A stretch of DNA of 32,000 nucleotides from Formosa sp. Hel1_33_131 (GTDB taxonomy: Bacteria > Bacteroidota > Bacteroidia > Flavobacteriales > Flavobacteriaceae). Location: the NCBI RefSeq assembly GCF_001735745.1, contig NZ_CP017260.1, forward strand, positions 540,001 to 572,000. The letters run 5' to 3'. The translations under genes and the position numbers were made by a program. Position 1 is the stretch's first letter. The number at the start of each line of letters is the position of its first letter. Positions 1 to 24,932 of this stretch are shown here, one piece after another. Below the pieces are notes generated by a model. The model searched no databases and had not been told where the DNA came from. It worked only from the letters and a program-made list of their open reading frames with translations.

Positions 1-3000
1 AGGTATTGATCGACACTACCTTGTATTTTATTTTTAGTATATGAATAAAAAGTTTCCTGAATTACTCCTTGATTGTTTTCATTAAAATCTCTATAAACAT
101 TATTTGTCTTAGATAATAATTGGTTAGAAGTATTATAATTAGACACGCTTAATAATCTCCCGATGGCTGATTTATTATCCTTAACGACATATTTTGTAGA
201 AGAAATTTTAGCATTATTGCCATTAACTGAATATGTACCAGAACTTTCGGTAGGAGTTTTATTTATATATAAAAGACCTAAAGAGTATGAACTATTATCC
301 GTTTTGACTATAGGTTTAAATGTTTCAAAATTATAAACCGTTTTAGAGCTGACTGTATTGTCTGATCCAATTTTTTCTGTTGTAACATACCCATAAGTCA
401 CACCAGGAGGGGGCATTTCGGTGACATATTCAATCTCCTTATCAAATTTAGAAGGCGCATAAGATGTTATTCCTGAAGATCTATAACTAGAACTATTTGG
501 ATCACTACTGTAATTTAAATCATTATAGTAATAATTAGTTTTATAAGATATTGTTCCATCTGTAATAGCAATATCCTTCACCCTAAGCCCACCTCCTTTT
601 CTGTTTTTTTTAGAATCTTTAGCAAATATTTTAAACAAAAATGTTACGGCTGTATCATCCCTACAAGTATCTGGCAAATCTGGAAATTGACCCCTTAATA
701 AATTTTGCATTGTATGATCGGAAAAACCAAGCCCCATAGGCCCTGAACTATATAACCAGTTTAGCCCATCATTATAATTATGAGTATGGCTTAATGAAGT
801 TTCAAAAGTCACCTTAGTATCCGAAACATAGACTACATTAACAAATTCATTCTGTATATCTATACTGCCAGACCTATCTTCACAAAAAGGGTCACGATAC
901 TCATGTAATAACGCAGCCCATATATCAACTTTAACGGGTGCACCTACTTGAAAATAATCGTTGAAATAATTTAAATCTTTACTATCCGTTTTATTTTCTA
1001 TATCAAATCTTAGTTTCCCTTCATGATTATAAAAATTAAATTGAATTCCATCATTATATGTTCTGAAATTCGTTGCAGCTTCTTGATAAAAATCATCAGG
1101 CTCATATGTAATTTCAAATTTTGAACCTAATGGAGTTGAAATATATTTTAAACTTGAGCTTTCAGGGTAATCAGCCGTGAACCCCCAAGAATCTTCATTA
1201 TCACTATTGTATATTGAAACATCATTTAAGTAACTGAACTCATAAGGTGGAATTAAACTTTCTTGTCCCCTTCCTAAAAAGTTTACATTACTTAAAGTAA
1301 GCTTCCCTTTTTGAGCTAACAATGAATTTGGAGAATTTCGCATCGATGGATAGGTTTCGTCATAATGCATTTCAATGTGATTAATTTTAAAATCATTTAT
1401 ATTGGAAAAATTATTAGCAATATCATTAGAGTTTAATACATTATTATAAAACTCGCCTTTCCACTCCTTTAAGCTTCCATTATTTAATAACGGATAATTT
1501 GCATGATATACTTCTCTATAAGCAGTATCATAAACTCTTATCTCTTCTTCAAAATACATTTCACCAATTTCTTTTCCGTTACTTTCTGATGTATAGGTTT
1601 TAATATTAGAAGGTACATCTTCATTTTTAAGAACAAAAATTTCTTTTAGCCTCAATGATTTATGTTTATTGATATTAACATATTCTTTATGCCAAATATT
1701 AGAAAAATAGACCCCAGTAGAAATATTCATAGCATGATTATCATATATGCCTTTAACAAAATATGTTGAACCACTATGCCCTAATACTTGTTTGTCTCCA
1801 TAATTATAAACTCGTGGAGAAGTTAAACTCGCTCCAATGTTAATTTCTACTCCATAATTATCATTTCTATCTTCTTTTACAAATAATGCGGTATGTGTTC
1901 TAGTTTTAATCATATCCAAATAATAAATCTCTTTCACCCCCCATCCATAAGATTTTGATTGATCATTCTTGTGATAAGTTAAATCCTTAGTTGGAGTTCT
2001 CCATGCATATCCATCACTCCATTTTCCATAGTCAAAACGAACCCAATACCCATAATCTCCTTGATTTGGGGAAATATTATCATTACTCATTTTAATATAA
2101 TCGGGACCTGTAATTGCAGTGAGTAGCCAGTGGGTCGCATAAGGAGTAAACTGTTGTTCTTCATAAAACTTATTGTCAATATTATCTTCAAGTTCTGTAG
2201 ATCTAGAAAACATTTCTTTTTGATATACTGGTAAAGAATAATGATAAACAAGACCATCTTTATTAGTCACCCTATAAGCTCCAATACCTTCTAAAGGCTT
2301 ATTAGAACGATTCACTTCATTAGCTTCTATAATTATATTTTGATTATTAATAATTTCACCATTAGTGAATACTTCAATAAAAGGACCATTATTAATTCTT
2401 TGGTTTGCAGAATTATAATTACTGTGAGCGGTACCGTTTATAGAGGTAGTATGATTAGTCTGCTCATTGTCGACATCTATATCCGTTATTAAATTTACAG
2501 ATGAAAAAGTAGGCCAAGAGCCAGAACTTAAGCTCATATATGAAGCATTTATGTTTTCAAAATAAAAATTTATATCATTATTTGGATCATCAACCTGTTT
2601 AGAAAAACTGTTATCATAATAACTAAAAGTAGATTGAGTAGCATAGCTAGTATTATTATGAGCACTAGAGCTTACACGATTATATCTATTTTTAAAAGTC
2701 CCATGCTCAAACAAGTACGGAGTAATAGAGCCACTAAGCCCCTGAGAACTCAAAGTGTAGCTGTCATAAGAAGGTCCTGTAAAATTATTCTCTAATAATT
2801 GTTGATTATCCGCAGTTTTATAAATGGACTGATAAGCATCAACTGACGCATTCGTCGGATTCAAAGAATTTAATATCATTTCATCTGTTTGACCTATATA
2901 CAAAATCCCTAGACAATCATAACTAGCTCTATCATACCACGAATATCTTTGTTTTCTTCTAGAATAGCCGAAATTAAATAATTCAATATTAACGTCAACG

Positions 3001-3770
3001 TAAATTACTGTTCCAATGGTTCTTGTGTGAAGATTGGGAGAAAGACTCCCAGATCCAGATATCTGTAAAGACCCTCCAGCAACTTTCAAATAATGATTTC
3101 CGTTAGAGTTTAGAGTAATGCCCGTACCATCCACTTCCAGTTTAAAACTAAAATCATTCCTTTTATCATAATTAATAGACGCATAAGTATTCTTATAAAT
3201 CGTATATGTATATCCAATACCGCCTTCATTATTGGCTCTTATGCTATGTCGACCAATTGAAAGAGTAGCTCCGTAACTAGTGTCATAAGAAGTTTCTCCT
3301 CCAAATGCTTTATTCACTCTATAAGAAGCAAATAATCCAACAGAAAAATTACTGTTTTTCCAACCAATAGATGCACTTATGTCATGTGTAGTGACTGTGC
3401 CACCAGCATCATATAAAATTGTTGTTTTTTTTCTATTATTCCAGTCATCAGGGTACCCATTCACACTTCTATTGATGGCTCCTGGGTTCAAGCTCCACCC
3501 CAAGCCCACCCAAGAGGCTTCTTGATCCATGGCAATCCCTGCGTGGTAGGACAATGATAAAGGATAGCCCACTTCTGGACCTGGCACATTTAATAAGGGC
3601 AATACATAACTTAAATCGCCTGTTGCTAAGTTCACCATATCCGTGGCATCTACGGGTTCAAAACTGGCGGCTTCAGGAGCATTGGGCCCTTGCGCAGTGC
3701 TCATTTGTATAGTCAATACAAGGAGAACAAAACGGAGGCTGAAGGTTTTTATTTGAGGGTGAATTTTCAT
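1..3770 (-). CDS. Large secreted SpvB/TcdB-N-like protein (Rhs/Tc-toxin-family-like), 5' part only, at least 1256 codons, continues past the left edge
   Basis: Absent from the ORF track. I scanned the minus-strand frame by hand (codons on plus positions 3k..3k+2). No in-frame tta/cta/tca triplet occurs between 3 and 3770. The ATG is at 3770-3768, 4 nt after the upstream gene's stop. Translation begins MKIHPQIKTFSLRFVLLVLTIQMSTAQGPNAPEAASFEPVDATDMVNLATGDLSYVLPLLNVPGPEVGYPLSLSYHAGIAMDQEASWVGLGWSLNPGAINRSVNGYPDDW, i.e. a signal peptide plus an SpvB-like motif. Later motifs are YATHWLLTAITGPDY, GKLTLSNVNFLGRGQESLIPPYEFSY, KGGGLRVKDIAITDG and SSGITSYAPS. The family call rests on remembered motif patterns, not a search. 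Confidence 0.8.
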   Translation of the reverse strand, partial: MKIHPQIKTFSLRFVLLVLTIQMSTAQGPNAPEAASFEPVDATDMVNLATGDLSYVLPLLNVPGPEVGYPLSLSYHAGIAMDQEASWVGLGWSLNPGAINRSVNGYPDDWNNRKKTTILYDAGGTVTTHDISASIGWKNSNFSVGLFASYRVNKAFGGETSYDTSYGATLSIGRHSIRANNEGGIGYTYTIYKNTYASINYDKRNDFSFKLEVDGTGITLNSNGNHYLKVAGGSLQISGSGSLSPNLHTRTIGTVIYVDVNIELFNFGYSRRKQRYSWYDRASYDCLGILYIGQTDEMILNSLNPTNASVDAYQSIYKTADNQQLLENNFTGPSYDSYTLSSQGLSGSITPYLFEHGTFKNRYNRVSSSAHNNTSYATQSTFSYYDNSFSKQVDDPNNDINFYFENINASYMSLSSGSWPTFSSVNLITDIDVDNEQTNHTTSINGTAHSNYNSANQRINNGPFIEVFTNGEIINNQNIIIEANEVNRSNKPLEGIGAYRVTNKDGLVYHYSLPVYQKEMFSRSTELEDNIDNKFYEEQQFTPYATHWLLTAITGPDYIKMSNDNISPNQGDYGYWVRFDYGKWSDGYAWRTPTKDLTYHKNDQSKSYGWGVKEIYYLDMIKTRTHTALFVKEDRNDNYGVEINIGASLTSPRVYNYGDKQVLGHSGSTYFVKGIYDNHAMNISTGVYFSNIWHKEYVNINKHKSLRLKEIFVLKNEDVPSNIKTYTSESNGKEIGEMYFEEEIRVYDTAYREVYHANYPLLNNGSLKEWKGEFYNNVLNSNDIANNFSNINDFKINHIEMHYDETYPSMRNSPNSLLAQKGKLTLSNVNFLGRGQESLIPPYEFSYLNDVSIYNSDNEDSWGFTADYPESSSLKYISTPLGSKFEITYEPDDFYQEAATNFRTYNDGIQFNFYNHEGKLRFDIENKTDSKDLNYFNDYFQVGAPVKVDIWAALLHEYRDPFCEDRSGSIDIQNEFVNVVYVSDTKVTFETSLSHTHNYNDGLNWLYSSGPMGLGFSDHTMQNLLRGQFPDLPDTCRDDTAVTFLFKIFAKDSKKNRKGGGLRVKDIAITDGTISYKTNYYYNDLNYSSDPNSSSYRSSGITSYAPSKFDKEIEYVTEMPPPGVTYGYVTTEKIGSDNTVSSKTVYNFETFKPIVKTDNSSYSLGLLYINKTPTESSGTYSVNGNNAKISSTKYVVKDNKSAIGRLLSVSNYNTSNQLLSKTNNVYRDFNENNQGVIQETFYSYTKNKIQGSVDQY

Positions 3771-3774
3771 AACG

Positions 3775-4434
3775 TTATTCTTTTTGGGTGCATTTGTTGT
3801 TGTAATAGGATACTATTTTTTCGAGGTCCCTTTTTTTAAAGGTTCGGGATTGTATTTTTTTTACCAAACTGGGGCAGTCTTTAAAATAGGCAGAAGCCGC
3901 CTTTTTAAAGTTTTTGCTAAACAATTGGTTTGACCCCAAATGGGTGGCTTCTTTTTGGCCTTCTTTACGGACGTAAAAATTATTGATATTATAGCTGTGC
4001 CCAAATGTAAAACCAACAGACGCCCCACCGCCACCAAAGCCGCCTGCGCCACCTCCAAAATTGTGAGGGCTATGATAGGTTCTACTCAATTCATACAGAC
4101 TTAAATACCCGGTAAGTTTAACTTCCAACACACGTGGTTTCTTTTTGTTTTGTACGCGGATATAGGCATAGGTATGAAATTCGTCGTATTCCTTAATTTT
4201 CACATGTTTTAGGGTTTTAAAAGGGTACTTTTTAGCTTTGGATTTCTTGTTTTTTCTAAACTTCACTCGGTCCTGAGAAATCAATTTCCCAAAGCCTTTT
4301 TTAACCGTTCCATCCTTAAAGGTTAAAATGGCTTCTGAGCGTTGCGCATTCAGGGTTGCAGTGCAAATAAGCAGTGCAACTCCCATTAGGAGGCTTCTTA
4401 AGATTTGGATGTTTGGTTTTATATTCATTTGCAA
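3775..4434 (-). CDS. Hypothetical secreted protein with a Gly-rich segment (FGGGAGGFGGGGAS)
   Basis: 219-aa ORF. N-terminal signal peptide (LLMGVALLICTATLNAQ). 5-nt gap to the upstream gene and 4 nt to the giant ORF. Confidence 0.7.
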   Translation of the reverse strand: MQMNIKPNIQILRSLLMGVALLICTATLNAQRSEAILTFKDGTVKKGFGKLISQDRVKFRKNKKSKAKKYPFKTLKHVKIKEYDEFHTYAYIRVQNKKKPRVLEVKLTGYLSLYELSRTYHSPHNFGGGAGGFGGGGASVGFTFGHSYNINNFYVRKEGQKEATHLGSNQLFSKNFKKAASAYFKDCPSLVKKIQSRTFKKRDLEKIVSYYNNKCTQKE

Positions 4435-4439
4435 TGCCC

Positions 4440-5066
4440 TTACAATTTTAAGGTCGGTTCATTTTTTAATGTTTGAGTCGCTATTTTAAACTTCACTTCG
4501 CCTGTGTATAAGCCCAAATCCTCAATGGTGAAGTTGAGGTAGTCCTGGTTTAGTTTGTCGGCCTCTCTTGGATAGACAAACATCATGGTGGTGGCACGGC
4601 TCATTCCATACATCCGTGGATAGATGTAATCCGCCAGCTCAATGGTGTCTTTCTGTGCTGTAAACAGGTGTACCTTGTCTTGCATTCCAAACGCCAATTG
4701 GTTGACCATGGCTCCAAATTCATTTTGGTTTTTGGGCGCAACACTCAACAATTCCTGGTTGTTTTTGCTCATGCTTAAATTGAAATAGAGGTACTTATGG
4801 TATTTTTCTCTGGATGTTTGCACTTGAGTTTCTGTTGCCGACGCATCGCCTAATTCTTGTTTGACCAACAAATCGGTAGGACGGTACAAGAGGGTGTATT
4901 CGACGCCATTGATCGTTTTGTGGTGTGTGTAACCGTTTTGTTCGTCTTGTATGTACATGAGTAAATCGTCTTCGTTCTCAAACGTTTTATGACCTTGACA
5001 CCCGATGAGGAGCACTCCTAAAAAACTTAGGGTAAGCATTTTTTGAAAGAGGTGTTTTTTAGCCAT
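4440..5066 (-). CDS. Hypothetical lipoprotein
   Basis: 208-aa ORF. Lipobox LLIGC after a hydrophobic leader (MLTLSFLGVLLIGCQG). Tightly packed in the operon. Confidence 0.7.
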   Translation of the reverse strand: MAKKHLFQKMLTLSFLGVLLIGCQGHKTFENEDDLLMYIQDEQNGYTHHKTINGVEYTLLYRPTDLLVKQELGDASATETQVQTSREKYHKYLYFNLSMSKNNQELLSVAPKNQNEFGAMVNQLAFGMQDKVHLFTAQKDTIELADYIYPRMYGMSRATTMMFVYPREADKLNQDYLNFTIEDLGLYTGEVKFKIATQTLKNEPTLKL

Positions 5067-5078
5067 CCGTTTGATTCC

Positions 5079-5741
5079 TTATTGTTTTGGTTCTATCTCC
5101 TCTTCTTCCATTAGCTCAGCTCCCTGTTCTTCCATCAGTTGTTCAAACACAGTGTCCAGTTCTTTTTTCCCGAACAATGCCAGTAATATGTTCTGATCCG
5201 CGATGATAAAGGGATCTTTACGCAACAAGGATTTTAAATCGTCTAAAGTTGCGATTTTTGGCAGCGGAATTTTTTCCACTTTTGGGGCGACTTCTTCTGC
5301 AATGGTCTCAGCATTCGGCTCCATGAGTTCGTCCTCTTTATCGTTGAAAATTGGTGTTTCGAGGTCTTCAATAGTGATGCCTTGTTGTTCCATCTCCCAC
5401 TTATAAGCCACGGTTGAAACCTCGCTATGGAGTTGGGCTTGTTTCTGTAGGAGTTTTGTTCCCAGTGGGCTGCTGTAAAAAGCATACAAGCCTTTCAACT
5501 CCTTTGGGGTGAATTGTTTTTGATAGACGGCTTCAATACCTGTGTAAAGCGACTTTGCTAAAGCGGTGCTGTCTTTCATTTTTTCAGAAGGCGCTACGGA
5601 TTGGAATTGTTGTAAGAACTCCAACCTAGAGTCCATATCGGTTTGATGTAGGAGCTTCACCAGTTGAGAGGCATCGGTTTCCTGTGCCTGCCCCTGAACT
5701 GTGAGGCATAGAATCATTAAAACAAAAAGTGATTTTATCAT
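5079..5741 (-). CDS. DUF2059-like secreted protein with an acidic C-terminal tail
   Basis: 220-aa ORF. Signal peptide MIKSLFVLMILCLTVQGQAQ. The segment YQKQFTPKELKGLYAFYSSPLGTKLL matches the DUF2059 pattern as I remember it. The C-terminus is E-rich (ELMEEEEIEPKQ). Confidence 0.65.
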   Translation of the reverse strand: MIKSLFVLMILCLTVQGQAQETDASQLVKLLHQTDMDSRLEFLQQFQSVAPSEKMKDSTALAKSLYTGIEAVYQKQFTPKELKGLYAFYSSPLGTKLLQKQAQLHSEVSTVAYKWEMEQQGITIEDLETPIFNDKEDELMEPNAETIAEEVAPKVEKIPLPKIATLDDLKSLLRKDPFIIADQNILLALFGKKELDTVFEQLMEEQGAELMEEEEIEPKQ

Positions 5742-5747
5742 AATTAT

Positions 5748-7136
5748 TTAATTTTTTAGATGGACTTCCAAAGCTTCCAATCGCGCTTCTAAGCTTTTGT
5801 TTTTTTGGTGTTGGGCTTCTAACTCTTTTTGTTGCTGGATAGTGTAAAGCGTGAGTTCTTCAATTTTTTGGAGGAGTTTGATGTTCATTTCTGCAAGATG
5901 AATCCCGTTTTCTTCCATTTCTTTAGCCGATGCTATTTCTGGAAGGTGTTTGTTTTTTGTAATAAACTGCTCGACTGTTTTTAATGTTGGTAACTTATAC
6001 GTGTCTTCAAAAACAAAATCTGCACCACCTGCTGTAGCAGTGACTCTCACTTCTCTTGTAGATATATTGCCCTTGACGGTTAATTTATAGCCAGAATCGG
6101 GGGTGTTAGTGCCAATTCCAATATTGCCAGTAGAAATATGAGCAAATAAATATGCTTTCTCTAAAAACTCATTATTTGTATATTCTAGCTGAGGACCACT
6201 ACTATCACGAATAAAGTAAGTGCCCTCATCTTGAAAAACCACCCCTCCCATATCATTATAAGTTCCTCCTGGGCGTACCCATTTTGCGGTAGCTTGATTC
6301 CATTTTGGAGGCCCATAACTACCGGTTAACCAATCGTCTCGTATCCAACTATTTTCAGAAGAAGCACTCGTTGCACCAATAGAGGTTTTTCTTAACTGTA
6401 CTCCGCTATTTACATGTAACTTGTATTGTGGATTTGTTGTTCCAATTCCGACATTGCCAGTTATAATAACTTTATTTCCTATATCGGTAATGATTTTAGC
6501 CCAAGTTCCAGCTCCAAGCCTATTGGTACTTCTAAAATACATTGTAGGAGATGAACTTGAATTTTTAATTGCGATTTGTCCATTATATTTATACGTAGAA
6601 CTATTTGAAACGTGGTTCATGTTTAAGCCCCAAAACCATCCACCTGATTCTGGACCATTTGTAGCATTATAACTTTCATAAAAACCACTTTGCCATATTG
6701 TATTCCAATCTATTGTTCTGTTAGGATCGTTTAACATTAATTTATTACTCAATATATTTCCATTGACGTGGAGTTTCTCGCTTGGAGTTGTTGTTCCAAT
6801 TCCGACATTTCCGGTTGCTCCTACATGAAATAAAGTTGATCCATTTTGGACTGTAGAATTATATCCCTTTTTCCTAACTTGAAAAGCATTTCTGTTTGTA
6901 TTTCCATACATCCAAACTATTGGAGATATTTGATGAGAACCAGAAAGAATACCAAAACCTCCTTGTGATTGGTTTGTAGTATCTGTACCACGTTGATCAC
7001 CAGCAAACTGATATAGTGTTCCAGTACCATCACCAAAAATCATAGCGCCGTTATTTGTAGAGGATGTGTCGTCTAATTGAGCAAATAGTAAAGAAATATT
7101 AAAAATTAAAAGAAGTGTAAGATTTGTTTTTTTCAT
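5748..7136 (-). CDS. Tail-fibre-like repeat protein with a C-terminal coiled coil
   Basis: 462-aa ORF. Signal peptide MKKTNLTLLLIFNISLLFAQ. Three copies of a G-N-[VI]-G-I-G-T-x-x-P...KL-x-V motif (GNVGIGTTTPSEKLHVNGN, GNVGIGTTNPQYKLHVNSG, GNIGIGTNTPDSGYKLTVKGN). The C-terminus reads ADFVFEDTYKLPTLKTVEQFITKNKHLPEI followed by heptad-like LLQKIEELTLYTIQQQKELEAQ. Confidence 0.75.
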   Translation of the reverse strand: MKKTNLTLLLIFNISLLFAQLDDTSSTNNGAMIFGDGTGTLYQFAGDQRGTDTTNQSQGGFGILSGSHQISPIVWMYGNTNRNAFQVRKKGYNSTVQNGSTLFHVGATGNVGIGTTTPSEKLHVNGNILSNKLMLNDPNRTIDWNTIWQSGFYESYNATNGPESGGWFWGLNMNHVSNSSTYKYNGQIAIKNSSSSPTMYFRSTNRLGAGTWAKIITDIGNKVIITGNVGIGTTNPQYKLHVNSGVQLRKTSIGATSASSENSWIRDDWLTGSYGPPKWNQATAKWVRPGGTYNDMGGVVFQDEGTYFIRDSSGPQLEYTNNEFLEKAYLFAHISTGNIGIGTNTPDSGYKLTVKGNISTREVRVTATAGGADFVFEDTYKLPTLKTVEQFITKNKHLPEIASAKEMEENGIHLAEMNIKLLQKIEELTLYTIQQQKELEAQHQKNKSLEARLEALEVHLKN

Positions 7137-7169
7137 AATAAATGGTTTTTAGTTCTGTTTTATTTAAGT

Positions 7170-7610
7170 TTATTGCCCCTCAAATTCCGCATTTAAACCG
7201 TCTAAAACGGTTTGGGTTAAATCGGAGGCCTCGTTGGCATACATGATATTTCCACTGCCGCTGGCTCCAAAAATAATTTGATGCCCTTGCTGTTTACCAT
7301 AGTCCTTCACATAGTCATTAATATCATTGATGACGGTTTGCGTGGCTTTCTTGTCTTCTTCCTGGATTTGTTTTTGAACGGCTTGTTGGTAGTTATTGAT
7401 CTGTTGTTGTTTATTGCCCAACAATTCCTGCTTGAGTTCCAATTCTTTTTTACTCATTTTGGAACGTTCTTTTTCGTAGATTTTCAATTCATTTTGCCAG
7501 TCCACGAGCAGACTGTCCACATTGGCATTGAGAGTTTTGGCTTTTTCTTCAAATTGCGCACGCACTATTTTGGTGCGTTTGTATCCATCCAATAATTTAT
7601 TGACATCCAC
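7170..7610 (-). CDS. skp: OmpH/Skp-family periplasmic chaperone body (GTG-start ORF lacking its signal peptide, possible pseudogene)
   Basis: 146-aa ORF. VDVNKLLDGYKRTKIVRAQFEEKAKTL plus a K/E/Q-rich coiled coil is typical of OmpH. The first codon is GTG, directly preceded by an in-frame TAA (7613-7611). Confidence 0.65.
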   Translation of the reverse strand: MDVNKLLDGYKRTKIVRAQFEEKAKTLNANVDSLLVDWQNELKIYEKERSKMSKKELELKQELLGNKQQQINNYQQAVQKQIQEEDKKATQTVINDINDYVKDYGKQQGHQIIFGASGSGNIMYANEASDLTQTVLDGLNAEFEGQ

Positions 7611-7613
7611 TTA

Positions 7614-7703
7614 CACTTGGTTGGAAGACGATTGTAAATAAAAAAAGGATCCAATGCTGATTAAAAGTGCAGCAATGGCTACAGGGAAGACGAGTTTATT
7701 CAT
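7614..7703 (-). other. Orphan 30-codon signal-peptide ORF in frame with skp, cut off by TAA
   Basis: The reverse complement reads ATG AAT AAA CTC GTC TTC CCT GTA GCC ATT GCT GCA CTT TTA ATC AGC ATT GGA TCC TTT TTT TAT TTA CAA TCG TCT TCC AAC CAA GTG TAA. This translates as MNKLVFPVAIAALLISIGSFFYLQSSSNQV*. It is in the same frame as 7170-7610. Confidence 0.6.
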
Positions 7704-7897
7704 AATTTTTAATAGATTTATTAGGTAGCATAAAACTATTAAAATACTGTTAAATAAAAAAATGGTTGTCTTGTTTTTTAACGTTTAACTAACATTTTAA
7801 CTCATTCTTATCTGATATAAAAAAACGGACATAGTTCCGACTCGTGTTAAAATTTTATATATATTTATCCCATTGTTTCTCATTAATCCCCAAAAAG

Positions 7898-8293
7898 ATG
7901 AAAAAACTGCCTGCTTATAATCTACAAGAAATCCTCATTGTGCTGGTCATTATTGGGATTTTACTGCTGTTGGCATTGCCCAACTTGATGCCCCTCATTA
8001 GCAAAGCCAAAAGTGTGGAAGCGCAACTCCAATTAAGTCACCTCTTCAATTCACAAACCACCTACCGTTATATGAATTCGAAATATTCAATGGACTTAGA
8101 AACCATTGATTTTGAAGCCCCAAAAACCGTAAAAGAAGAGGGGACTTCCAATTACCGCTATGAAATTATAAGTGCCACCAACCACCAATTCAAAGCCCGT
8201 GCGACTGCCATTACTGATTTTGATGGCGATGGAGTGTTTAATGTGTGGGAAATTGACGAAGATGGCAAACCAAAACAAACCGTAAAAGATTAA
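7898..8293 (+). CDS. Type IV pilin / pseudopilin with a class III signal peptide
   Basis: MKKLPA|YNLQEILIVLVIIGILLLLALPNL aligns with the Bacteroidetes prepilin pattern K-A-F-T-L-I-E-L-L-V-V-I-A-I-I-G-I-L, with Glu at +5. I prefer the ATG at 7898 to the GTG at 7844 used in the ORF track. Confidence 0.8.
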   Translation: MKKLPAYNLQEILIVLVIIGILLLLALPNLMPLISKAKSVEAQLQLSHLFNSQTTYRYMNSKYSMDLETIDFEAPKTVKEEGTSNYRYEIISATNHQFKARATAITDFDGDGVFNVWEIDEDGKPKQTVKD

Positions 8294-8294
8294 A

Positions 8295-8771
8295 ATGGGG
8301 ATCCTAAAACTGATCTTATTGAGTGCCTTTGCGAGCGTCGCCTATCAGGATTTGAAGGACCGCTCTGTGTATTGGTTTTTGTTTCCAGCCATTGGCATTT
8401 GCGTCGGAATTCTCTTTTTTCAGGAAACCTCAGCGGCCTTGTTTTTGGAAGCCATCCTACTCAATTTGGTATTTATTGGTCTGTTGTTGGGCGTGATCTT
8501 TTTGTATGCGACCTATAAACTAAAAATGAAATTATCGGACACAATTGGTTTGGGTGATGGACTGTTGTTTGTCGCGCTGGCATTTGGTTTTGCCCAATTG
8601 ACTTTTATGATTGTCTTTGTGTTTGGATTGGTAGGTTCGTTGCTTTTACATCTAGTTCTAAAAAAATCTAAATCAGAATCCGTGCCCTTAGCGGGCTATA
8701 TGAGTGTGTTTTTTGCATTCGTTTATGCTGCCCATTGGATGGGTTTTTTAACCCCTGCTTATACCTTATAA
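8295..8771 (+). CDS. Short A24-family prepilin peptidase (no methyltransferase domain)
   Basis: 158-aa polytopic membrane protein. Both catalytic Asp contexts are present (AYQDLKDRSVY and GLGDGLLF). It starts 2 nt after the pilin stop. Confidence 0.75.
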   Translation: MGILKLILLSAFASVAYQDLKDRSVYWFLFPAIGICVGILFFQETSAALFLEAILLNLVFIGLLLGVIFLYATYKLKMKLSDTIGLGDGLLFVALAFGFAQLTFMIVFVFGLVGSLLLHLVLKKSKSESVPLAGYMSVFFAFVYAAHWMGFLTPAYTL

Positions 8772-8772
8772 T

Positions 8773-10179
8773 TTGAACGAAGATTTTCACATAGCAACCC
8801 ATTTATCGCAACTTATTTCGAGTGCGCAAGCCTACCATTACCGGATCATTCCTGTGGAGGCGCACAATGGCAGCTTGACGTTTAAATCCGATCAAGTGTC
8901 TGATCATTTGACACAGGAATTACAAATCATCTTAAATAAAGAGATTGAACTCCTTGAAGACTCCACCGAAAACATACAACAGTATTTGAGTGTGAATTTT
9001 AGACCACAGTCTAAAAACCCCCAAGAAGACTTGCGTTACAGCACGGATTTTTTAGAAAAACTACTCTTGACCGCTAAAGATATTGGGAGTAGTGACATTC
9101 ATTTTGAGCCTTATGAATTTAGGTGTCGCGTGCGCTACCGATTGGATGGGAAATTGAAAGAACAGTTTTTTATTTCTTTGGAAGAATACCCAGTGATTAT
9201 TAACAAACTCAAGATAAAAGCAAATTTAGACATCTCCGAAAAACGCCTCCCACAAGATGGGCGGATCACGGTCAAAGCCAATGGCGATGAATTTGACATT
9301 CGGGTGTCCACCCTCCCCACGCTGCATGGCGAAAAAATTGTGCTTCGTATTTTAAGTAAAGATGCCACCCTTGTTAATTTAAGTGAATTGGGATTTACAG
9401 CCTCGGAACTCAAGCTCTATACGGAAACGCTGAAAAAACCCAACGGAATTATTTTAATTTCTGGCCCCACAGGCTCTGGAAAAACGACAACGCTCTATGC
9501 CACCCTGAAGCTTCTGAACGACGAAACAACTAATATTCTTACCATTGAAGATCCGATAGAATATACGCTAGAAGGCATCAACCAAGTGCAGCTTAAAGAA
9601 AGTATTGGATTGGATTTTTCGAGTACTTTAAGAACCTTTTTACGACAGGATCCTGATGTGATTATGGTGGGAGAAATTCGGGATGTAAAAACTGCTAACA
9701 TGGCCATTCGCGCCGCGTTGACAGGGCATTTGGTATTGTCCACCATCCATACCAATTCGGCTTGGGCAACGATTTCGAGATTAATTGACATGGGCATCCC
9801 TTCCTTTTTAATCGCCAGCACCTTAAACGTCAGTGTTGCGCAGCGTTTGGTTCGGAAACTATGTCCCGTTTGCAAAAAAGAAGCTCCCATCTCAAAAGGG
9901 TTATTCCCTGCTGATTTTAAAATACCCAACAACTTAAAAACGCATTTCAAAGCGGAAGGCTGTAACGATTGTTACCACACAGGCTATCAAGGACGACGGG
10001 CGATTTATGAGATTTTGCCGATCCAAAAAGCCTTAACCGAACACATCAAACAAAACACCTTAGAAATTGAAGATTATAGTATAAAAAATAATATTAAAAC
10101 CCTTAAAGACAATGCATTAGATCTAGTAATCAACGGTGTCACTTCTATAGATGAAGTATATACCCTGCTTTCTAGTTAA
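8773..10179 (+). CDS. pilB: PilB/GspE-family type IV filament assembly ATPase
   Basis: Walker A GPTGSGKTTT, Walker B/Asp box DPDVIMVGEIRD, His box GHLVLSTIHTN, and the tetracysteine motif CPVCKK...CNDCYHTGYQGR. Apparent TTG start 2 nt after the peptidase stop. Confidence 0.9.
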   Translation: MNEDFHIATHLSQLISSAQAYHYRIIPVEAHNGSLTFKSDQVSDHLTQELQIILNKEIELLEDSTENIQQYLSVNFRPQSKNPQEDLRYSTDFLEKLLLTAKDIGSSDIHFEPYEFRCRVRYRLDGKLKEQFFISLEEYPVIINKLKIKANLDISEKRLPQDGRITVKANGDEFDIRVSTLPTLHGEKIVLRILSKDATLVNLSELGFTASELKLYTETLKKPNGIILISGPTGSGKTTTLYATLKLLNDETTNILTIEDPIEYTLEGINQVQLKESIGLDFSSTLRTFLRQDPDVIMVGEIRDVKTANMAIRAALTGHLVLSTIHTNSAWATISRLIDMGIPSFLIASTLNVSVAQRLVRKLCPVCKKEAPISKGLFPADFKIPNNLKTHFKAEGCNDCYHTGYQGRRAIYEILPIQKALTEHIKQNTLEIEDYSIKNNIKTLKDNALDLVINGVTSIDEVYTLLSS

Positions 10180-10219
10180 AATATAGCTGCTGTCATTACC
10201 CTAGTTTTATCTCTAAAAA

Positions 10220-12439
10220 ATGAAAAAAATAATCCCCATAGTTGCCTTATTAATTTGCAGTTTCACTCATGCGCAAAATCCGGATCAACGTATTTTGAAC
10301 ATCAAAAATCAGTTGGAATTGTTATCAACGGAAGTGAATGGATTGACCGAAAATGTCAAGACTGAAATTAACGTTGACAACATCACCCTCTCCAATTTTT
10401 TGTTAGCGGTTTCGGATGTTCATAAAGTAAATATTAATGTGTCGCCAGAACTGAATCAAATTAGTATCGCAAATAATTTTACGGACGTATCCGTCGCAGA
10501 TTTACTGGTATTTTTATGTAAAGAATACAACTTGACCATTGATTTTACAGGAAACATCCTTTCAATTAAACAGTATTTTGAAACCCCCGAAACCCCCGAA
10601 AAACGGGTCATTCCCATCACCTACGACCCAAATAATCAGACCATTTCTATCGATGCGAAAGGAGATTCGCTTTACGACGTATTCAAACGCATTATGGATG
10701 AAACTGGGAAAAACTTAGTGTTTTCCCCAGGTCTTGAAGCTAAATTGTTGACGGCCTATATTCAACAAACGCCTTTTGATACTGCGATGGACAATATGGC
10801 TTTTGCAAATAATTTATATGTAGAACAATCAAAAGATGGGTTTTATCTCTTTGAAGATAATTCGCCTAGCGGAACAACTTCTAATTCAAATACTTCCAAT
10901 TCTGGAAATCAACGCCCTGCAAGATCCCGGAATTCTAACTTCTTTTTTAATGTGCTCAACTTAGAAAATCAATTGTTAGAAGTTGATTTTGTCAATACAT
11001 CCATTGCTGATATTATCAATGATATTGGCAATGCCCTCAACATTGATGTGTTTACTGCAACACCTTTAGACCAAGCAGGTATGGCGACCTTTAAAGCCAA
11101 GTCTATTTCTTTTGATGCTCTATTAACCAAGATTTTTGAAGGACAAACGACTCAAACTTCCGAAACTTCAAATCCTAACAATCCTAACAATTCAAATTTT
11201 AATAACCCGAACCAACGGTCATTATCAAATGTAAAAAGTTCCAAAGGCTCCAAGCATTTTACCTACAAAAAAGAAGGCACCATTTATTTCTTTGGAACCG
11301 AAAATCAGTTGAGTGTTCGTGAAGTTGCGATCATTCATTTACAACACCGTTCTGTAGAATTGCTATCAGACCCAAGCGGAGGCGGCAGTCGCAGCAGCAG
11401 TCGAAACGCTAGAAGTCAAGTGCAAAATACCAATACAAACTCAAGAAATAACACGAATTCTAATTCGAATCAAATTGATAATTACAGCAATCGTAACCGA
11501 GAACAACTGAATACCAATTCAAATCAATCCTTTAGTAATTACAGTAGCAAAGCGGAGGCATTGGTGAATATTCTTCCAGATGAAATTAAAAAAGATTTGG
11601 ACATTAAAGTGGATTATGAACTCAACAGTTTTTACGTCAATGGCCCGAGCAGTAACATTGGACGGTTCAAGGATTTTATATCTAAAATTGACAAACCTGT
11701 CCCCGTTATTTTAATTGAAGTTATGATGATTGAGGTTAACACCAACGCTATTGTAGAAACAGGAGTCAGTTGGGGCATTGGAAAAGAGCCAACAACCACT
11801 AGCGGTGGAATCTATCCAGAAACAGACCTTAGCTTAGGCGCACACACTATTAATAAGGTTATTGGTGGCTTTGACGGCTTTGGGTCTTTTAACTTAGGGA
11901 AAGTGATTCCTAATTTTTTCGCAACAATTAAAGCCATGGAATCCAATGGAAATTTAAAGGTGCGCTCCACTCCCAAACTCTCAACGCTAAATGGACACCG
12001 TGCGCGATTTTCAAATGGACAAACCTCCTATTACGCCGTTACCCAACGTAATATTTATGGTAATGACAATCCACAAACGTCTGAAATTACAAACTACCAG
12101 CCTATAGAAGCAGAATTGGGGCTCACCATCAAACCCATTGTTTCGGGAGATGGACAAGTCACCTTGGATATTTTTGTAATTCAGTCCAGTTTTAGAGGTC
12201 GAATTTCAAAAGATGCACCGCCAGATATTAGCTCTCGAGAATTCAGTTCCATTATTCGCGTGAGAGATCAAGACATTGTCGTTTTAGGAGGTCTGGAGGA
12301 GCGACGAACAAATAACTCAGGGTCGGGAGTTCCCTTTTTATCAAGAATCCCCATTATAAAATGGCTGTTTAGCAAACGGGTACGAGAAGGTCGTAAATCT
12401 AAATTAACTGTGTTAATCAAACCCACCATTATTTACTAA
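10220..12439 (+). CDS. Secretin (GspD/PilQ family) with Asn/Ser-rich low-complexity inserts
   Basis: Signal peptide MKKIIPIVALLICSFTHAQ. C-terminal secretin motifs STPKLSTLNGHRARF, VVLGGL and VPFLSRIPIIKWLF. Confidence 0.9.
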   Translation: MKKIIPIVALLICSFTHAQNPDQRILNIKNQLELLSTEVNGLTENVKTEINVDNITLSNFLLAVSDVHKVNINVSPELNQISIANNFTDVSVADLLVFLCKEYNLTIDFTGNILSIKQYFETPETPEKRVIPITYDPNNQTISIDAKGDSLYDVFKRIMDETGKNLVFSPGLEAKLLTAYIQQTPFDTAMDNMAFANNLYVEQSKDGFYLFEDNSPSGTTSNSNTSNSGNQRPARSRNSNFFFNVLNLENQLLEVDFVNTSIADIINDIGNALNIDVFTATPLDQAGMATFKAKSISFDALLTKIFEGQTTQTSETSNPNNPNNSNFNNPNQRSLSNVKSSKGSKHFTYKKEGTIYFFGTENQLSVREVAIIHLQHRSVELLSDPSGGGSRSSSRNARSQVQNTNTNSRNNTNSNSNQIDNYSNRNREQLNTNSNQSFSNYSSKAEALVNILPDEIKKDLDIKVDYELNSFYVNGPSSNIGRFKDFISKIDKPVPVILIEVMMIEVNTNAIVETGVSWGIGKEPTTTSGGIYPETDLSLGAHTINKVIGGFDGFGSFNLGKVIPNFFATIKAMESNGNLKVRSTPKLSTLNGHRARFSNGQTSYYAVTQRNIYGNDNPQTSEITNYQPIEAELGLTIKPIVSGDGQVTLDIFVIQSSFRGRISKDAPPDISSREFSSIIRVRDQDIVVLGGLEERRTNNSGSGVPFLSRIPIIKWLFSKRVREGRKSKLTVLIKPTIIY

Positions 12440-13641
12440 TGCTAAATACCATTTGGACATATCTACAGTATGGAAAGCACTTTTGTGGGGTTGAACTCAG
12501 CACCCATAATCAGACTGAAATTCTAAATGCAACGGTACTGCTTCAATCTAAAAAAGAGCTCAACATCAGTGCTTCTTTTAAAGATAATACCATTGAAAAT
12601 CTATCGAAACATCTACCGAAACACCAACATATTGTTTTGATCGTTAATAATGACAAAGTACTTTCTAAAACAATTGAAAATAAACAAACGGATGCTTTAA
12701 AATTAGTTTATAGCGCATTCCCAAACATCAATCTTGAAGATTTCTATTTTGAAGTCCTCTCTCAAAAGAACTCGCATTTTATAAATATCTGTCGGAAAGA
12801 TTATATAAATACACTTGTAGAAACCTATGCGAAACATCAACTTTTAATACTCAATATATCTTTAGGAAATCATTCTCTGAGCAACCTCATGGAGTTTATC
12901 CAAGAGGAAACGATTTACAGTTCTAATGCTAAAATCACTCTGGAAAACGATGACATCTTACAGATTGAAAAGGGAGCTGTTGTTTCAGAAAATTATGATA
13001 TAAATGGCAGTAGTGTGACCAATCATCAGTTGCTCTCTTTTTCGGGAGCCCTCCAACCTATTTTAAAAAACAGCAACACAGAAACCAACTTTTCAACAGA
13101 AAAAAAACACTTAGAAGACAGTTACAAACAAACGCGGTTTTATAATCTATTTATAAAATTTGGAGGTCTCTTTATTTTAGGGTTATTATTAATTAACTTT
13201 TTCTTTTTTAATCATCATTTCGATAGCGTAAATGAATTGGAGCAAGTCTCAGAAATAAATCAAGTTACCAAAAAACAAATCATTATACTTAATGAAACCG
13301 TCTCCAAAAAACAGAAAATGGTAGATGATTTACTAAAAAGCAATGGATCTAAAAGCTCGTTTTACAGTCATACTATTATCGAAAGCTTACCGGAAACCAT
13401 TCTGCTCTCAGACTACCATTACCAGCCTTTGTTAAGGCGCATTAAAGAAGATGCTCCTATTCAATTAAGTGAAGATCACATTCTCGTTTCAGGCAGCTGT
13501 ATTAAGAGCTCTGATTTTTCAGAATGGATTAATCATTTAGAAAAAATGGGGTGGATTGCTAAAGTTGCTATTGTAGAGTATCGCAATACGAGTTCCAAAA
13601 AATCAGAATTTAAAGTTTCTATCCTTATAAGAAATGACTAA
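12439..13641 (+). CDS. PilM-like cytoplasmic domain fused to a PilN-like bitopic domain (assembly/alignment protein)
   Basis: 400 aa with a single TM (FIKFGGLFILGLLLINFFFF), then a coiled coil and a periplasmic domain. The start overlaps the secretin stop (TAATG). Assignment rests on architecture and position only. Confidence 0.55.
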   Translation: MLNTIWTYLQYGKHFCGVELSTHNQTEILNATVLLQSKKELNISASFKDNTIENLSKHLPKHQHIVLIVNNDKVLSKTIENKQTDALKLVYSAFPNINLEDFYFEVLSQKNSHFINICRKDYINTLVETYAKHQLLILNISLGNHSLSNLMEFIQEETIYSSNAKITLENDDILQIEKGAVVSENYDINGSSVTNHQLLSFSGALQPILKNSNTETNFSTEKKHLEDSYKQTRFYNLFIKFGGLFILGLLLINFFFFNHHFDSVNELEQVSEINQVTKKQIIILNETVSKKQKMVDDLLKSNGSKSSFYSHTIIESLPETILLSDYHYQPLLRRIKEDAPIQLSEDHILVSGSCIKSSDFSEWINHLEKMGWIAKVAIVEYRNTSSKKSEFKVSILIRND

Positions 13642-14146
13642 ACAGCAAAAAAATATAGCCCTCACAGTATCTTTTATTTTGGCATTGATCCTTTGTTACC
13701 AACTCGCCATCAAAAACACCCTTCAACTAAAAGAACAACATACCCATTTAGCAAATGAGGCTGTATCTCTCAAAAGTGCACCCCAGCAATTAGCCTTGTT
13801 AAAACAAAAAAATGTTTATTATGATTCGCTCTTAACAAGGTTCCAATTGGGTGGGTCTTCGATTCAAAACAATCTTCTTAAAGTCATCAATACCTACGCC
13901 AGTAATAACGCATTAAAGGTGGTTGATTTTCTAGAACCCCACGTCTCTACAAATGATAACTTAGTGATCAAAACCTATGATTTCACGCTTGAAGGCACTT
14001 ATAACAACATCAATCAACTTGTCTATTTATTAGAACAAAAAACTAAATTTGGGGAGGTCATCAGTCTTCATTTTGAAAAAAAGAAAAACTATAGAACGGG
14101 ACGGTTTTATTTGCAAGCAAGGATTTTGTTAAAGAGTTTTGGCTGA
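13634..14146 (+). CDS. PilO-like bitopic assembly protein
   Basis: 170 aa with an N-terminal TM (IALTVSFILALILCYQLAI) followed by a coiled coil. 8-nt overlap with the upstream gene (ATGACTAA). Assignment rests on architecture and position only. Confidence 0.5.
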   Translation: MTKQQKNIALTVSFILALILCYQLAIKNTLQLKEQHTHLANEAVSLKSAPQQLALLKQKNVYYDSLLTRFQLGGSSIQNNLLKVINTYASNNALKVVDFLEPHVSTNDNLVIKTYDFTLEGTYNNINQLVYLLEQKTKFGEVISLHFEKKKNYRTGRFYLQARILLKSFG

Positions 14147-14201: not shown

Positions 14202-14286
14202 GCGCACGTGGCGGAATTGGTAGACGCGCTAGCTTGAGGGGCTAGTGGGAATTATTCCCGTGGAAGTTCGAGTCTTCTCGTGCGCA
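14202..14286 (+). tRNA. tRNA-Leu (anticodon GAG), class II with a long variable arm
   Basis: Folded by hand. Acceptor stem GCGCACG/CGTGCGC. Anticodon stem CTAGC/GCTAG with loop TTGAGGG (anticodon GAG). Long variable arm TGGGAATTATTCCCGTG. T arm GGAAG-TTCGAGT-CTTCT. Discriminator A. No encoded CCA. Confidence 0.9.
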
Positions 14287-14364
14287 CTTTTGTATTATTT
14301 AAGTTCAACATTTTGTTTTTAATGTTTTTTTGATTAGTTTAGTTGACCCAAATCTTATTAAAAC

Positions 14365-15264
14365 ATGAACACAATTAAAACCTCCTTTAGCATAAAGGAC
14401 TTAGAAAATCTTTCTGGAATTAAAGCCCATACCATTCGTATATGGGAGAAACGCTACAATCTTCTCGTGCCAGAACGCACAGACACCAACATTAGGACTT
14501 ACAATTTAAGAAGCTTACAAAAGCTGATGAACATTAGTTTCTTAAACAGTAATGGCTATAAAGTCTCTAGAATTGCAGTACTTGATGAGTTTCAAATTGC
14601 AGCAAAAGTAAAAGAGGTTTCGTATTTAGGAAATACGGAACCACATGCCTTTAATGCCTTTAAACTGGCGATGCTAAATTTTGACCAAGCACTTTTTTAC
14701 AACACCTATAACCGTTTGTTAGAGGAAAAAAGCTTTCGTGAAATTTTTTACGAACTCTTCATTCCCATCATACAAGACATCGGTTTTTTATGGCAAACAC
14801 TCACTATCAAGCCTTCCCATGAGCATTTTTTATCTGTTCATATTCGACAAAAAGTGTTGATTCATATTGAGCGCATACAAAGTTCAAACCCGAAACCTGA
14901 TACAAAAACGTTTGTGTTGTTTTTACCACTCAATGAAATTCATGATATTGGACTTTTGTTTATAAACTACGAACTTTTGAGTCGTGGATACCACACAATT
15001 TATCTTGGTGAAAGTGTCCCTATTGAGGACCTTACCCTTCTTAACGCTCTTTATGAAGACATTACATACGTCTCTTATTTCACCATCAAACCAAACCCTG
15101 AAGAGGTTGAAGGTTATTTGAAAAAACTCTATACGGAAGTAATTAAAAACACTACTAATTCGGTGCGGTTACTTGGAACACGTTTTATAGATTCTAAACC
15201 CAAAAAACTTCCAAAACAGATGAAACTCTATAAATCTATCAAGAATTTAGTTAAAGATTTGTAA
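14365..15264 (+). CDS. carH: CarH/LitR-type MerR-family transcriptional regulator with a B12-binding photoreceptor domain
   Basis: N-terminal MerR HTH (FSIKDLENLSGIKAHTIRIWEKRYNLLVPERTDTNIRTY). Wx9EH motif (WQTLTIKPSHEH). ExHxxG cobalamin-ligand motif (EIHDIG). Directly upstream of crtI-crtB-crtZ-cyclase. Confidence 0.8.
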   Translation: MNTIKTSFSIKDLENLSGIKAHTIRIWEKRYNLLVPERTDTNIRTYNLRSLQKLMNISFLNSNGYKVSRIAVLDEFQIAAKVKEVSYLGNTEPHAFNAFKLAMLNFDQALFYNTYNRLLEEKSFREIFYELFIPIIQDIGFLWQTLTIKPSHEHFLSVHIRQKVLIHIERIQSSNPKPDTKTFVLFLPLNEIHDIGLLFINYELLSRGYHTIYLGESVPIEDLTLLNALYEDITYVSYFTIKPNPEEVEGYLKKLYTEVIKNTTNSVRLLGTRFIDSKPKKLPKQMKLYKSIKNLVKDL

Positions 15265-15319
15265 AAAATCGTTAGACACATACTAACTGTATTGGCTTTT
15301 GCTTATTTTTATACGCTAA

Positions 15320-16789: not shown

Positions 16790-16822
16790 GCAGCTTAGTT
16801 AAAAAATTTAAAATTTAAGTTT

Positions 16823-17662
16823 ATGAAGTCCATATTTGATGCTGTATCACAAGACTGTAGTCGGATTATTACTCAGACCTATAGCACCTCGTTTTCGATG
16901 GCCACAAAAATGCTGTCGAACTCGATTCGTCAGGATATTTATAATATCTACGGCTTTGTACGCTTGGCGGATGAAATTGTAGATTCATTTCACGACTATG
17001 ACAAACAAGCGTTATTCATTCAATTTGAAGCAGATTTAGAAGCGGCACTTATTAATAAAATCAGCCTCAACCCTATTTTGAATTCCTTTCAACACACCTA
17101 TCATACCTACGCTATTGATAAAGACATGGTAGATGCTTTTATGAATTCAATGCGTCAGGATTTGCATAAGACGGTCTATCACACGGATGAAGAATATAAA
17201 AATTACATTTATGGCTCTGCCGATGTGGTTGGTCTGATGTGTTTAAAAGTCTTTGTAAAAGGGGATGATAAACGCTATGAGTCGCTCAAGAAAACAGCTA
17301 TGGCGTTGGGCTCTGCATTTCAAAAAGTAAATTTCTTGAGAGATTTAAAAGCAGATCACGATGAATTGAATCGAACATACTTTCCTAACACGGATTTAAA
17401 TAATTTAGATGAAATCTCTAAAAAGGCAATTATTGACGATATTGAAAATGATTTCGCTGAAGGATTGAAAGGGATTAAACAACTGCCTTTAGAAGCTAAG
17501 TTTGGTGTTTTTATGGCGTACCGTTATTACAATCAACTGCTTAAAAAACTAAAAACAACCCCTGCACTCGAAATCAAAAGTACCCGAATTCGAGTCCCTG
17601 ATTATAAAAAAGTAGAACTGCTCACCCGTAGTTATGTCAAATATCAACTCAATCTATTATAG
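16823..17662 (+). CDS. crtB: Phytoene synthase
   Basis: 279 aa. Squalene/phytoene synthase motifs (YGFVRLADEIVD, YIYGSADVVGLM, AFQKVNFLRDLKAD). Confidence 0.9.
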   Translation: MKSIFDAVSQDCSRIITQTYSTSFSMATKMLSNSIRQDIYNIYGFVRLADEIVDSFHDYDKQALFIQFEADLEAALINKISLNPILNSFQHTYHTYAIDKDMVDAFMNSMRQDLHKTVYHTDEEYKNYIYGSADVVGLMCLKVFVKGDDKRYESLKKTAMALGSAFQKVNFLRDLKADHDELNRTYFPNTDLNNLDEISKKAIIDDIENDFAEGLKGIKQLPLEAKFGVFMAYRYYNQLLKKLKTTPALEIKSTRIRVPDYKKVELLTRSYVKYQLNLL

Positions 17663-17670
17663 CCTTTATT

Positions 17671-18120: not shown

Positions 18121-18123
18121 CGG

Positions 18124-22655: not shown

Positions 22656-22658
22656 CGC

Positions 22659-24930: not shown

Positions 24931-24932
24931 AA

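Follow-up and report, generated by a model that had tools for sequence, protein, structure and literature searches.

We analysed a stretch of 32,000 nucleotides (nt) from Formosa sp. Hel1_33_131 (NZ_CP017260.1, positions 540,001-572,000, forward strand; hereafter the window, whose own positions serve as coordinates) and studied the six closely packed minus-strand genes at 1-7703. This region probably supplies the chaperone, the accessory proteins and the first cargo of a module that is conserved in Flavobacteriaceae and coupled to an adjoining machine resembling a type II secretion system (T2SS), and the module would export Rhs toxins by way of Sec and then the T2SS-like machine. The evidence comes mainly from gene order compared across genomes, in which a Skp-like chaperone gene and a lipoprotein gene recur upstream of a giant gene and an Rhs toxin gene recurs downstream of it.

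The region contains the following features (aa, amino acids).

1-3770, minus strand: first giant, N-terminal 1256 aa, cut by the window edge (translation)
3775-4434, minus strand: 219-aa Gly-rich exported protein, an optional accessory (signal peptide read by eye)
4440-5066, minus strand: 208-aa lipoprotein, hereafter LIPO, a core member of the module (lipobox with Cys23)
5079-5741, minus strand: 220-aa DUF2059 protein with a signal peptide (Pfam DUF2059, E = 1.5e-12)
5748-7136, minus strand: 462-aa tail-fibre-like protein with a signal peptide (PHROG and PDB matches)
7170-7610, minus strand: OmpH/Skp domain of the module-specific Skp-like chaperone, 146 aa (Pfam OmpH, E = 3.3e-21)
7611-7703, minus strand: detached 30-codon signal-anchor of the Skp-like gene, ending in TAA (sequence)

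An earlier first-pass annotation of this DNA had described the six genes as a tight operon that could be an accessory export module for a giant SpvB-like toxin. Its coordinates and the gaps between the genes (33, 6, 12, 5 and 4 nt) match ours exactly, and its Skp-like, DUF2059, tail-fibre-like and lipoprotein assignments were borne out by the matches given here and below. Such close gene spacing is ordinary in operons, and the packing is equally tight in the adjoining secretion cluster (7844-14146). A terminator scan found no terminator-like hairpin within any of the five gaps. Scans for promoters, for terminators and for TAnnTTTG, the -7 motif of Bacteroidetes, were uninformative, with counts no higher than in shuffled sequence, and Rfam and tRNA scans had no match inside 1-7703.

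Gene order around the two giants

Relatives of the first giant were sought by a scan of one genome per species, which gave 420, and the best 80 loci were analysed with 10-kb flanks. The upstream side was compared at the 72 loci with 1.3 kb or more of sequence before the giant (the informative loci) and the downstream side at the 69 with 3 kb or more after it. The Skp-like gene was found at 67 of the 72 loci and LIPO at 68 (34-67% identity), and at 67 loci, from many Flavobacteriaceae genera, the two genes immediately precede the giant, with order and strand unchanged. An Rhs-like gene was present no more than 6 kb downstream of the giant at every one of the 69 loci. In addition, many genomes have several giant/Rhs copies, and Skp-like and LIPO genes accompany the giant also in multiple paralogous copies within one genome. 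As judged from this synteny, the core of the module that marine and soil Flavobacteria conserve is Skp-like chaperone, LIPO, giant of about 1700 aa and Rhs toxin, in that order. An accessory export module for the giant was therefore a reasonable reading, because Skp-like and LIPO genes precede the giant homologue at these 67 loci, although the T2SS-like cluster on one side and the Rhs toxin on the other had been missed.

The remaining small genes behave differently from these two. The 219-aa gene was found directly upstream of the giant at 9/72 loci, always between LIPO and the giant when present, and DUF2059 is placed as in the window at only one of the 80 genome loci (L005, Flavivirga jejuensis) and occurs also in a close metagenome relative (L108); the DUF2059 gene is a lineage-specific insertion outside the module core. 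A tail-fibre-like gene is immediately upstream of Skp at 34 of the 72 loci, and the arrays reach seven copies; one to seven such genes, normally upstream of Skp, are present at about half of the loci, and we regard them as frequent satellites that vary in number and position. The co-occurrence proposed for the five small genes as one module consequently holds for the Skp-like gene and LIPO and fails for the other three. Because the core is Skp-LIPO-giant-Rhs, the order in the window, where the fibre and DUF2059 genes stand between Skp and LIPO, is a lineage-specific variant. The full order of the module is likely to be a tail-fibre-like gene where one is present, Skp-like, LIPO, in some loci the 219-aa gene, the giant, Rhs and small putative immunity genes.

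A different explanation is that the small envelope genes have housekeeping roles and only happen to lie beside a horizontally acquired toxin gene. The G+C content does fall to 29-31% over most of the giant gene (window 1-3000), compared with 39-41% in the five upstream genes, and the DUF2059 and 219-aa genes are dispensable. The low value could result from horizontal acquisition or from a composition rich in Asn, Ser, Tyr and Lys. Nevertheless, the company that Skp-like and LIPO genes keep with the giant across genera and among paralogous copies refutes a chance neighbourhood for these two, and no housekeeping annotation was found for either of them. We therefore give this explanation of the region next to no probability.

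The first giant, of which the window holds only a part, is 1694 aa at full length on near-identical marine metagenome contigs; two such contigs (L001 and L002) were found by the exact 208-aa LIPO sequence and are 99.9% identical to the window. The protein has a Sec signal peptide and a near-invariant N-terminal motif (residues 28-110); its body is beta-rich, and YD repeats are confined to the region near the C-terminus. Its family comprises more than 1900 proteins of about 1700 aa in Flavivirga, Aquimarina, Tenacibaculum, Flavobacterium, Flagellimonas and other genera, nearly all annotated as "hypothetical" or "YD repeat-containing". Pfam RHS_repeat was detected in 11 of 26 family members, near the C-terminus only, and the window giant gave just sub-threshold DUF6531 and RHS_repeat signals. 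The description of the giant as SpvB-like was not upheld: SpvB and TcdB Pfam domains had no match (E ≤ 0.1 or 0.01) in the window giant, its full-length form or the 26 relatives, sequence and profile searches gave no PDB relative, and a profile of the N-terminal motif had no PDB match at E ≤ 10. According to the family consensus, the C-terminus is a conserved YD-repeat end that lacks the Rhs core motif, and neither an Rhs core nor a variable C-terminal toxin was found in the first giant. Its designation as a toxin has to be withdrawn as well, the polymorphic C-terminus belonging to the separate, signal-peptide-bearing Rhs protein that follows.

The AlphaFold model of residues 1-1200 is almost all beta, with a predicted local distance difference test score (pLDDT) of 78.9 and a predicted template modelling score (pTM) of 0.77. 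The sole significant Foldseek matches of this model were an Rhs protein (8qjb, 5.7e-7), SGS1 (8fjp, 2.9e-6) and teneurin-2 (9g41, 1e-5), all with template modelling (TM) scores below 0.1. A YD-shell-like but very divergent fold is thus weakly supported by the model. Two other identities were considered for the first giant. That of SpvB/TcB was rejected, as no TcB was found by Pfam, by PDB sequence and profile searches or by Foldseek, and that of a paralogue of the Rhs partner was unsupported (hhalign probability 5%).

The second giant, of at least 1419 aa, lies downstream of the first on L001 and L002, beyond the left edge of the window. The two genes overlap by 11 nt (L001 9432-9442), and because the Rhs protein has its own signal peptide, they encode separately exported products and are not a split gene. 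The second giant contains RHS repeats (Pfam) and a core that matches solved Rhs proteins and mosquito SGS1 in the PDB search. All Rhs partners begin with a Sec-type signal peptide followed by variable N-terminal domains, with BACON- and DUF6443-type matches in some. The core consensus is ...YRYAYQGQEKDxETG...RLWDxRIGRWLTTDP...NNPIxxIDPDGG; the canonical proteobacterial DPxGL motif was not found at the boundary, where DPDGG stands instead. The tails after the core (156-274 aa) are mostly unrelated, only 14 of 666 tail pairs being similar. Because a canonical core is followed by unrelated tails, the Rhs partners qualify as bona fide polymorphic Rhs toxins, and by these sequence features they, and not the first giant, would be the actual toxins of the module. 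Small open reading frames (ORFs) follow the Rhs genes across loci and are putative immunity genes. At 12 loci an IS200-like Y1 transposase of the REP-associated type was found just downstream of the Rhs gene (for example L022 20514-21071, L009, L017 and L047), and it may take part in the turnover of toxin cassettes.

Two consecutive giant genes, the second with an Rhs core and a hypervariable C-terminus, are also the layout of TcB-TcC, and the pair might accordingly be TcB/TcC-type subunits of a Tc (ABC) toxin whose TcA is encoded elsewhere and which is released by lysis. The second giant does have the TcC-type feature. However, a TcA-like gene was found neither in the window nor in the flanks of the 80 loci, where the large neighbours tested as candidate partners proved to be CHAT-TPR, Mfd, other DUF6443 Rhs and PKD/CHU_C proteins and were rejected. 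The 26 giant family members gave no match to the SpvB or TcdB mid-domains, no TcB chain was among the Foldseek matches, and both giants have Sec signal peptides whereas Tc subunits are cytoplasmic. A Tc toxin is consequently a very unlikely explanation of this locus.

Skp-like chaperone, lipoprotein and fibre-like proteins

The Skp-like product scored 76.4 bits with the OmpH model PF03938 (cut-off 32.4) and only 18.9 bits with the E. coli Skp equivalog model (cut-off 237). Because the latter score is far below its cut-off, the protein is a distant paralogue of Skp. It is the most conserved member of the module, with 57-86% identity among homologues compared with 30-60% for the giant.

In the window, this gene is interrupted. 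The frame that starts with the ATG at 7703 is shut after 30 codons by a TAA at 7613-7611, and the next codon is a GTG, at which the OmpH domain starts. In every homologue examined the signal-anchor is contiguous with the OmpH domain. At the position of the TAA, all of about 70 genome homologues have a Tyr codon (TAT or TAC), and TAT was found there in the metagenome relatives nearest to the window (94-96% identity). The TAA is common to the window and to L001 and L002, which come from separate assemblies and differ from the window by few substitutions. Because these slightly differing sequences all carry it, the TAA is probably a real, lineage-specific allele. The OmpH domain could be made solely from the adjacent GTG, in which case it would lack the signal-anchor and therefore remain in the cytoplasm. 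Since the gene is interrupted, the module of the window may work poorly, unless translation starts anew at the GTG; its remaining genes appear intact. Signal peptides were read by eye from the translations of the 462-, 220- and 219-aa proteins and of the first giant, so that the statement that every complete product carries a signal peptide or lipobox is correct for the other genes but fails for the Skp-like gene, because the TAA separates its signal-anchor from the OmpH domain.

The 208-aa protein is by its sequence a lipoprotein, as the lipobox Cys23, which follows a hydrophobic signal, is invariant across 44 aligned LIPO sequences. Export signals of Bacteroidota lipoproteins are read from the residues after the lipobox Cys. 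Because these residues are not acidic in the LIPO alignment, the sequence suggests that LIPO faces the periplasm. None of its 969 homologues is named. The predicted structure is an alpha/beta fold (pLDDT 81.7), and Foldseek against PDB gave no significant solved relative (best E = 0.019, TM 0.3-0.44). The 219-aa protein had no Pfam, NCBIfam or PHROG match, and gene callers choose a start 16 codons later, giving 203 aa.

The 462-aa protein matched PHROG tail fibre families (E = 1e-10 and 5e-9) and, in PDB, the Bdellovibrio fibre proteins 8ond (Bd2133) and 8ol4. It has GNVGIGT repeats and, at its C-terminal end, a conserved domain that includes a coiled coil, and it is predicted to be a mosaic trimeric fibre-like protein. 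More than 7000 mosaic homologues were found, named tail fiber, pyocin knob or PilV-like. Some relatives (P0268, P0286 and P0339) have a Shufflon_N domain, that of the PilV pilus-tip adhesin, which hints that the fibre modules are mountable on type IV pilins.

The adjoining T2SS-like cluster

A cluster of secretion genes begins 140 nt from the Skp-like gene on the opposite strand and extends over 7844-14146, as follows.

7844-8293, plus strand: type IV pilin/pseudopilin-like protein, first gene of the cluster (weak Pfam ComP_DUS and Pilin_GH matches; NCBIfam PilA and GspG below cut-off)
8295-8771, plus strand: 158-aa polytopic membrane protein with DLKDR and GLGDG motifs (family f7; motifs read from the sequence)
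8773-10179, plus strand: GspE/PilB-type assembly ATPase (Pfam T2SSE, E = 4e-131)
10220-12439, plus strand: GspD-like secretin, 739 aa (Pfam Secretin, E = 1.7e-39)
12439-14146, plus strand: two inner-membrane assembly-platform candidates, of 400 aa (family f9) and 170 aa (PilO/GspM-like) (synteny and Pfam)

The 158-aa protein had no Pfam or NCBIfam match; from its motifs it may be a minimal prepilin peptidase that lacks the methyltransferase domain. Pseudopilin, motif-assigned peptidase, ATPase and secretin are thus encoded together at 7844-12439. Pfam PilO matched the 170-aa protein (E = 3e-4) and no Pfam family matched the 400-aa protein, and both genes are syntenic with the secretin across loci. 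In NCBIfam, PilB and GspE scored about equally for the ATPase and GspD scored higher than PilQ for the secretin, all below the equivalog cut-offs; because these scores do not separate T2SS from type IV pilus, we call the machine T2SS-like. The window contains neither GspF nor minor pseudopilins, which are present in syntenic sub-loci of related genomes.

Clustering of the ORFs of the 80 loci showed that the same six families adjoin the module in relatives, mostly in the divergent layout, the pilin-like gene being syntenic at 27 of 80. By tblastn, an ATPase, secretin or GspF gene was found within 10 kb of the giant at 25 of 50 full-length loci, in several orientations. The earlier statement that the genes match no known delivery system overlooked this T2SS-like cluster, which lies next to them and is syntenic at half of the full-length loci. 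Relatives have in addition a second sub-locus with GspF (T2SSF E = 2.7e-45 in L035), an N-methyl pseudopilin and further conserved exported proteins, and L035 is fully co-directional (GspD-f9-f11-peptidase-GspE-pseudopilins-GspF-Skp-LIPO-giant-Rhs). The association was also examined in reverse, with metagenome contigs recruited by GspE alignment: of 36 such loci that were 15 kb or longer, about 22 by our count had giant, Rhs or Skp relatives, even at 50-57% GspE identity.

Between the pilin and the fibre/Skp genes, several loci (for example L022 5806-6501, L005, L026, L041 and L083) encode a protein of about 225 aa with a response-regulator receiver domain, which may control the divergent promoters. 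Further along the window, a tRNA-Leu (GAG) gene at 14202-14287 (plus strand) stands between the secretion cluster and a carotenoid cluster at 14365-18825 (plus strand), which encodes a MerR-type regulator (light-sensor type, having a B12-binding domain), phytoene desaturase, phytoene synthase, hydroxylase and lycopene cyclase. At 21702-26897 (minus strand), a MoxR AAA+ ATPase gene is followed by those of two large PpiC/SurA-like rotamase proteins flanking an unassigned 284-aa ORF, so that the window encodes periplasmic folding factors at a second place as well.

Possible export route and known systems

Gene linkage was observed directly at the loci described above, and from it we infer how export could proceed. 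Both giants, the fibres and the small proteins would cross the inner membrane via Sec, as their N-terminal signal peptides suggest. In the periplasm, the membrane-anchored Skp-like protein and LIPO would then hold these very large, beta-rich chains and assemble them. By analogy with known Rhs biology, the Rhs protein would enclose its variable C-terminal toxin and cleave at the NNPIxxIDPDGG core motif. A folded giant/Rhs particle could subsequently be expelled through the secretin by the pseudopilus or be shown at the cell surface, and the mosaic fibre proteins might provide target recognition.

Several observations weigh against this account. The T2SS-like genes are absent at the other half of the 50 full-length loci, in a search limited to 10 kb. 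A secretin channel is perhaps too narrow for an Rhs-type shell. In the window itself, the gene of the chaperone is interrupted. The predicted LIPO fold yields no functional clue in the Foldseek comparison, the assignment of the giant to the YD shells stands on low-TM matches, and its profile homology to the Rhs partner is not significant.

The cluster and the giant may also be read in terms of surface display. The giant would be anchored in the outer membrane or at the cell surface, the Skp-like protein and LIPO would deliver its beta-rich N-terminal region to the beta-barrel assembly machinery (BAM) in the manner of an inverse autotransporter or two-partner system, the Rhs protein would dock on the giant, and the filament machine would be a contact pilus and not a secretion device. 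Skp chaperones classically serve outer-membrane beta-barrel proteins, and the beta strands at residues ~113-290 of the giant are long and alternating, with many Gly, Ser and aromatic residues. Low-ranked Foldseek matches include a designed transmembrane barrel as well as porins and ushers; these matches, however, fall short of significance (E > 0.1, probability < 0.6), the strands, predicted at 20-25 residues, exceed the length found in membrane barrels, and the top significant matches are YD-shell proteins. The ATPase and pilin score just as well for PilB and PilA as for GspE and GspG, and contact killing in Myxococcus needs a Tad-like filament machine (PMC8460266), whereas no PilT-type retraction ATPase turned up in the clusters, in which none was systematically searched for. 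On balance we consider surface display, with the Rhs protein docked on the giant and the machine acting as a contact pilus, unlikely.

Returning to export by Sec and the T2SS-like machine, we put forward only tentatively the more specific proposal of a dedicated route, in which the T2SS-like machine, the Skp paralogue and a LIPO of new fold would export or present a fibre-targeted two-giant YD/Rhs particle, and which would be widespread in Flavobacteriaceae and other Bacteroidota. Rhs toxins are known to be delivered by type VI secretion systems (T6SS), by the type VII secretion system or Sec in Gram-positive bacteria, and by Tc complexes. If the proposal is true, Rhs toxins would have their first T2SS-type pathway, and this passage by Sec and a T2SS-like machine, served by a Skp chaperone of its own, would be a further mode of delivery for a toxin family that ranks among the most widespread in bacteria. 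It would also give a reason why many Flavobacteriaceae that rely on the type IX secretion system retain a T2SS-like machine, and a function to more than 1900 giant proteins now named hypothetical. Because the module is present in fish pathogens (F. psychrophilum and Tenacibaculum) as well as in marine genera of high abundance, it may have a part in virulence and in competing on surfaces.

Compared with known T2SS and type IV filament machines, the cluster has the same secretin, GspE/PilB ATPase, pilin, peptidase-like and PilO-like genes, here beside toxin genes, and in related loci only also GspF and minor pseudopilins; its assignment to a subclass is limited in that all NCBIfam scores are below the equivalog cut-offs. 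We know of no T2SS with a dedicated Skp paralogue or Rhs cargo. Among type IV filament machines, the Tad-like Kil apparatus of Myxococcus serves contact-dependent killing (PMC8460266) and resembles the cluster in the shared genes listed above.

The downstream partner shares with Rhs/YD polymorphic toxins (T6SS-linked 7q97 and 8qjb; Tse5 8cp6) the RHS repeats, the Rhs core, a boundary of the DPxG type and C-terminal domains that are polymorphic and have small ORFs after them, and YD shells are the closest likeness of the model of the first giant in Foldseek. Unlike T6SS-linked Rhs toxins, the module loci have no T6SS genes, PAAR or VgrG, both giants have Sec signal peptides, and the module adds a core-less giant, a dedicated Skp-like chaperone, LIPO and the secretin/pseudopilus linkage. 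The BC subcomplex of Tc toxins, reportedly described by Busby and colleagues in 2013 as a TcB-TcC cocoon, has the same two-gene, giant, beta-rich layout with an Rhs core and a hypervariable toxin in the second protein. The module differs from it in the absence of TcA and of SpvB/TcdB domains and in the presence of signal peptides, and homology between the giant and TcB was undetectable by Pfam, PDB profile search and Foldseek. The 462-aa protein shares GNVGIGT-type repeats with the mosaic adhesive trimer fibres of Bdellovibrio (8ond and 8ol4) and with phage tail fibres, but the similarity is weak, with E values of about 1e-3 to 1e-10, and the conserved part of its family is the coiled-coil C-terminal domain, which has no known relative.

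The closest counterpart is a cluster of about 35 kb specific to F. psychrophilum CC-ST10, described in one paragraph by Duchaud et al. 2018 (PMC5808330). It comprises T2S genes (FPSM_02418-02423 and 02435-02439), OmpH/Skp (FPSM_02424), two "ABC-toxin-like" genes (FPSM_02426 and FPSM_02429) and an adhesin (FPSM_02432), and the authors proposed a dedicated translocation role for it. As compared by gene order and annotations only, not by sequence, its content and order are those of the module: GspD, GspE and GspG divergent from OmpH/Skp, a pair of giants likened to BC toxins, and another T2S sub-locus. The 2018 description itself contains no functional work, and we found no functional study of the module in the literature. 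Beyond that description are the spread over dozens of genera, LIPO as a core member, the arrays of fibre genes, the polymorphic Rhs C-termini and the nonsense allele of the window. The six genes had been put forward as an undescribed, stand-alone system; with the F. psychrophilum version already reported, the arrangement is not wholly undescribed and is instead a widespread, essentially uncharacterised variant of Rhs toxin systems.

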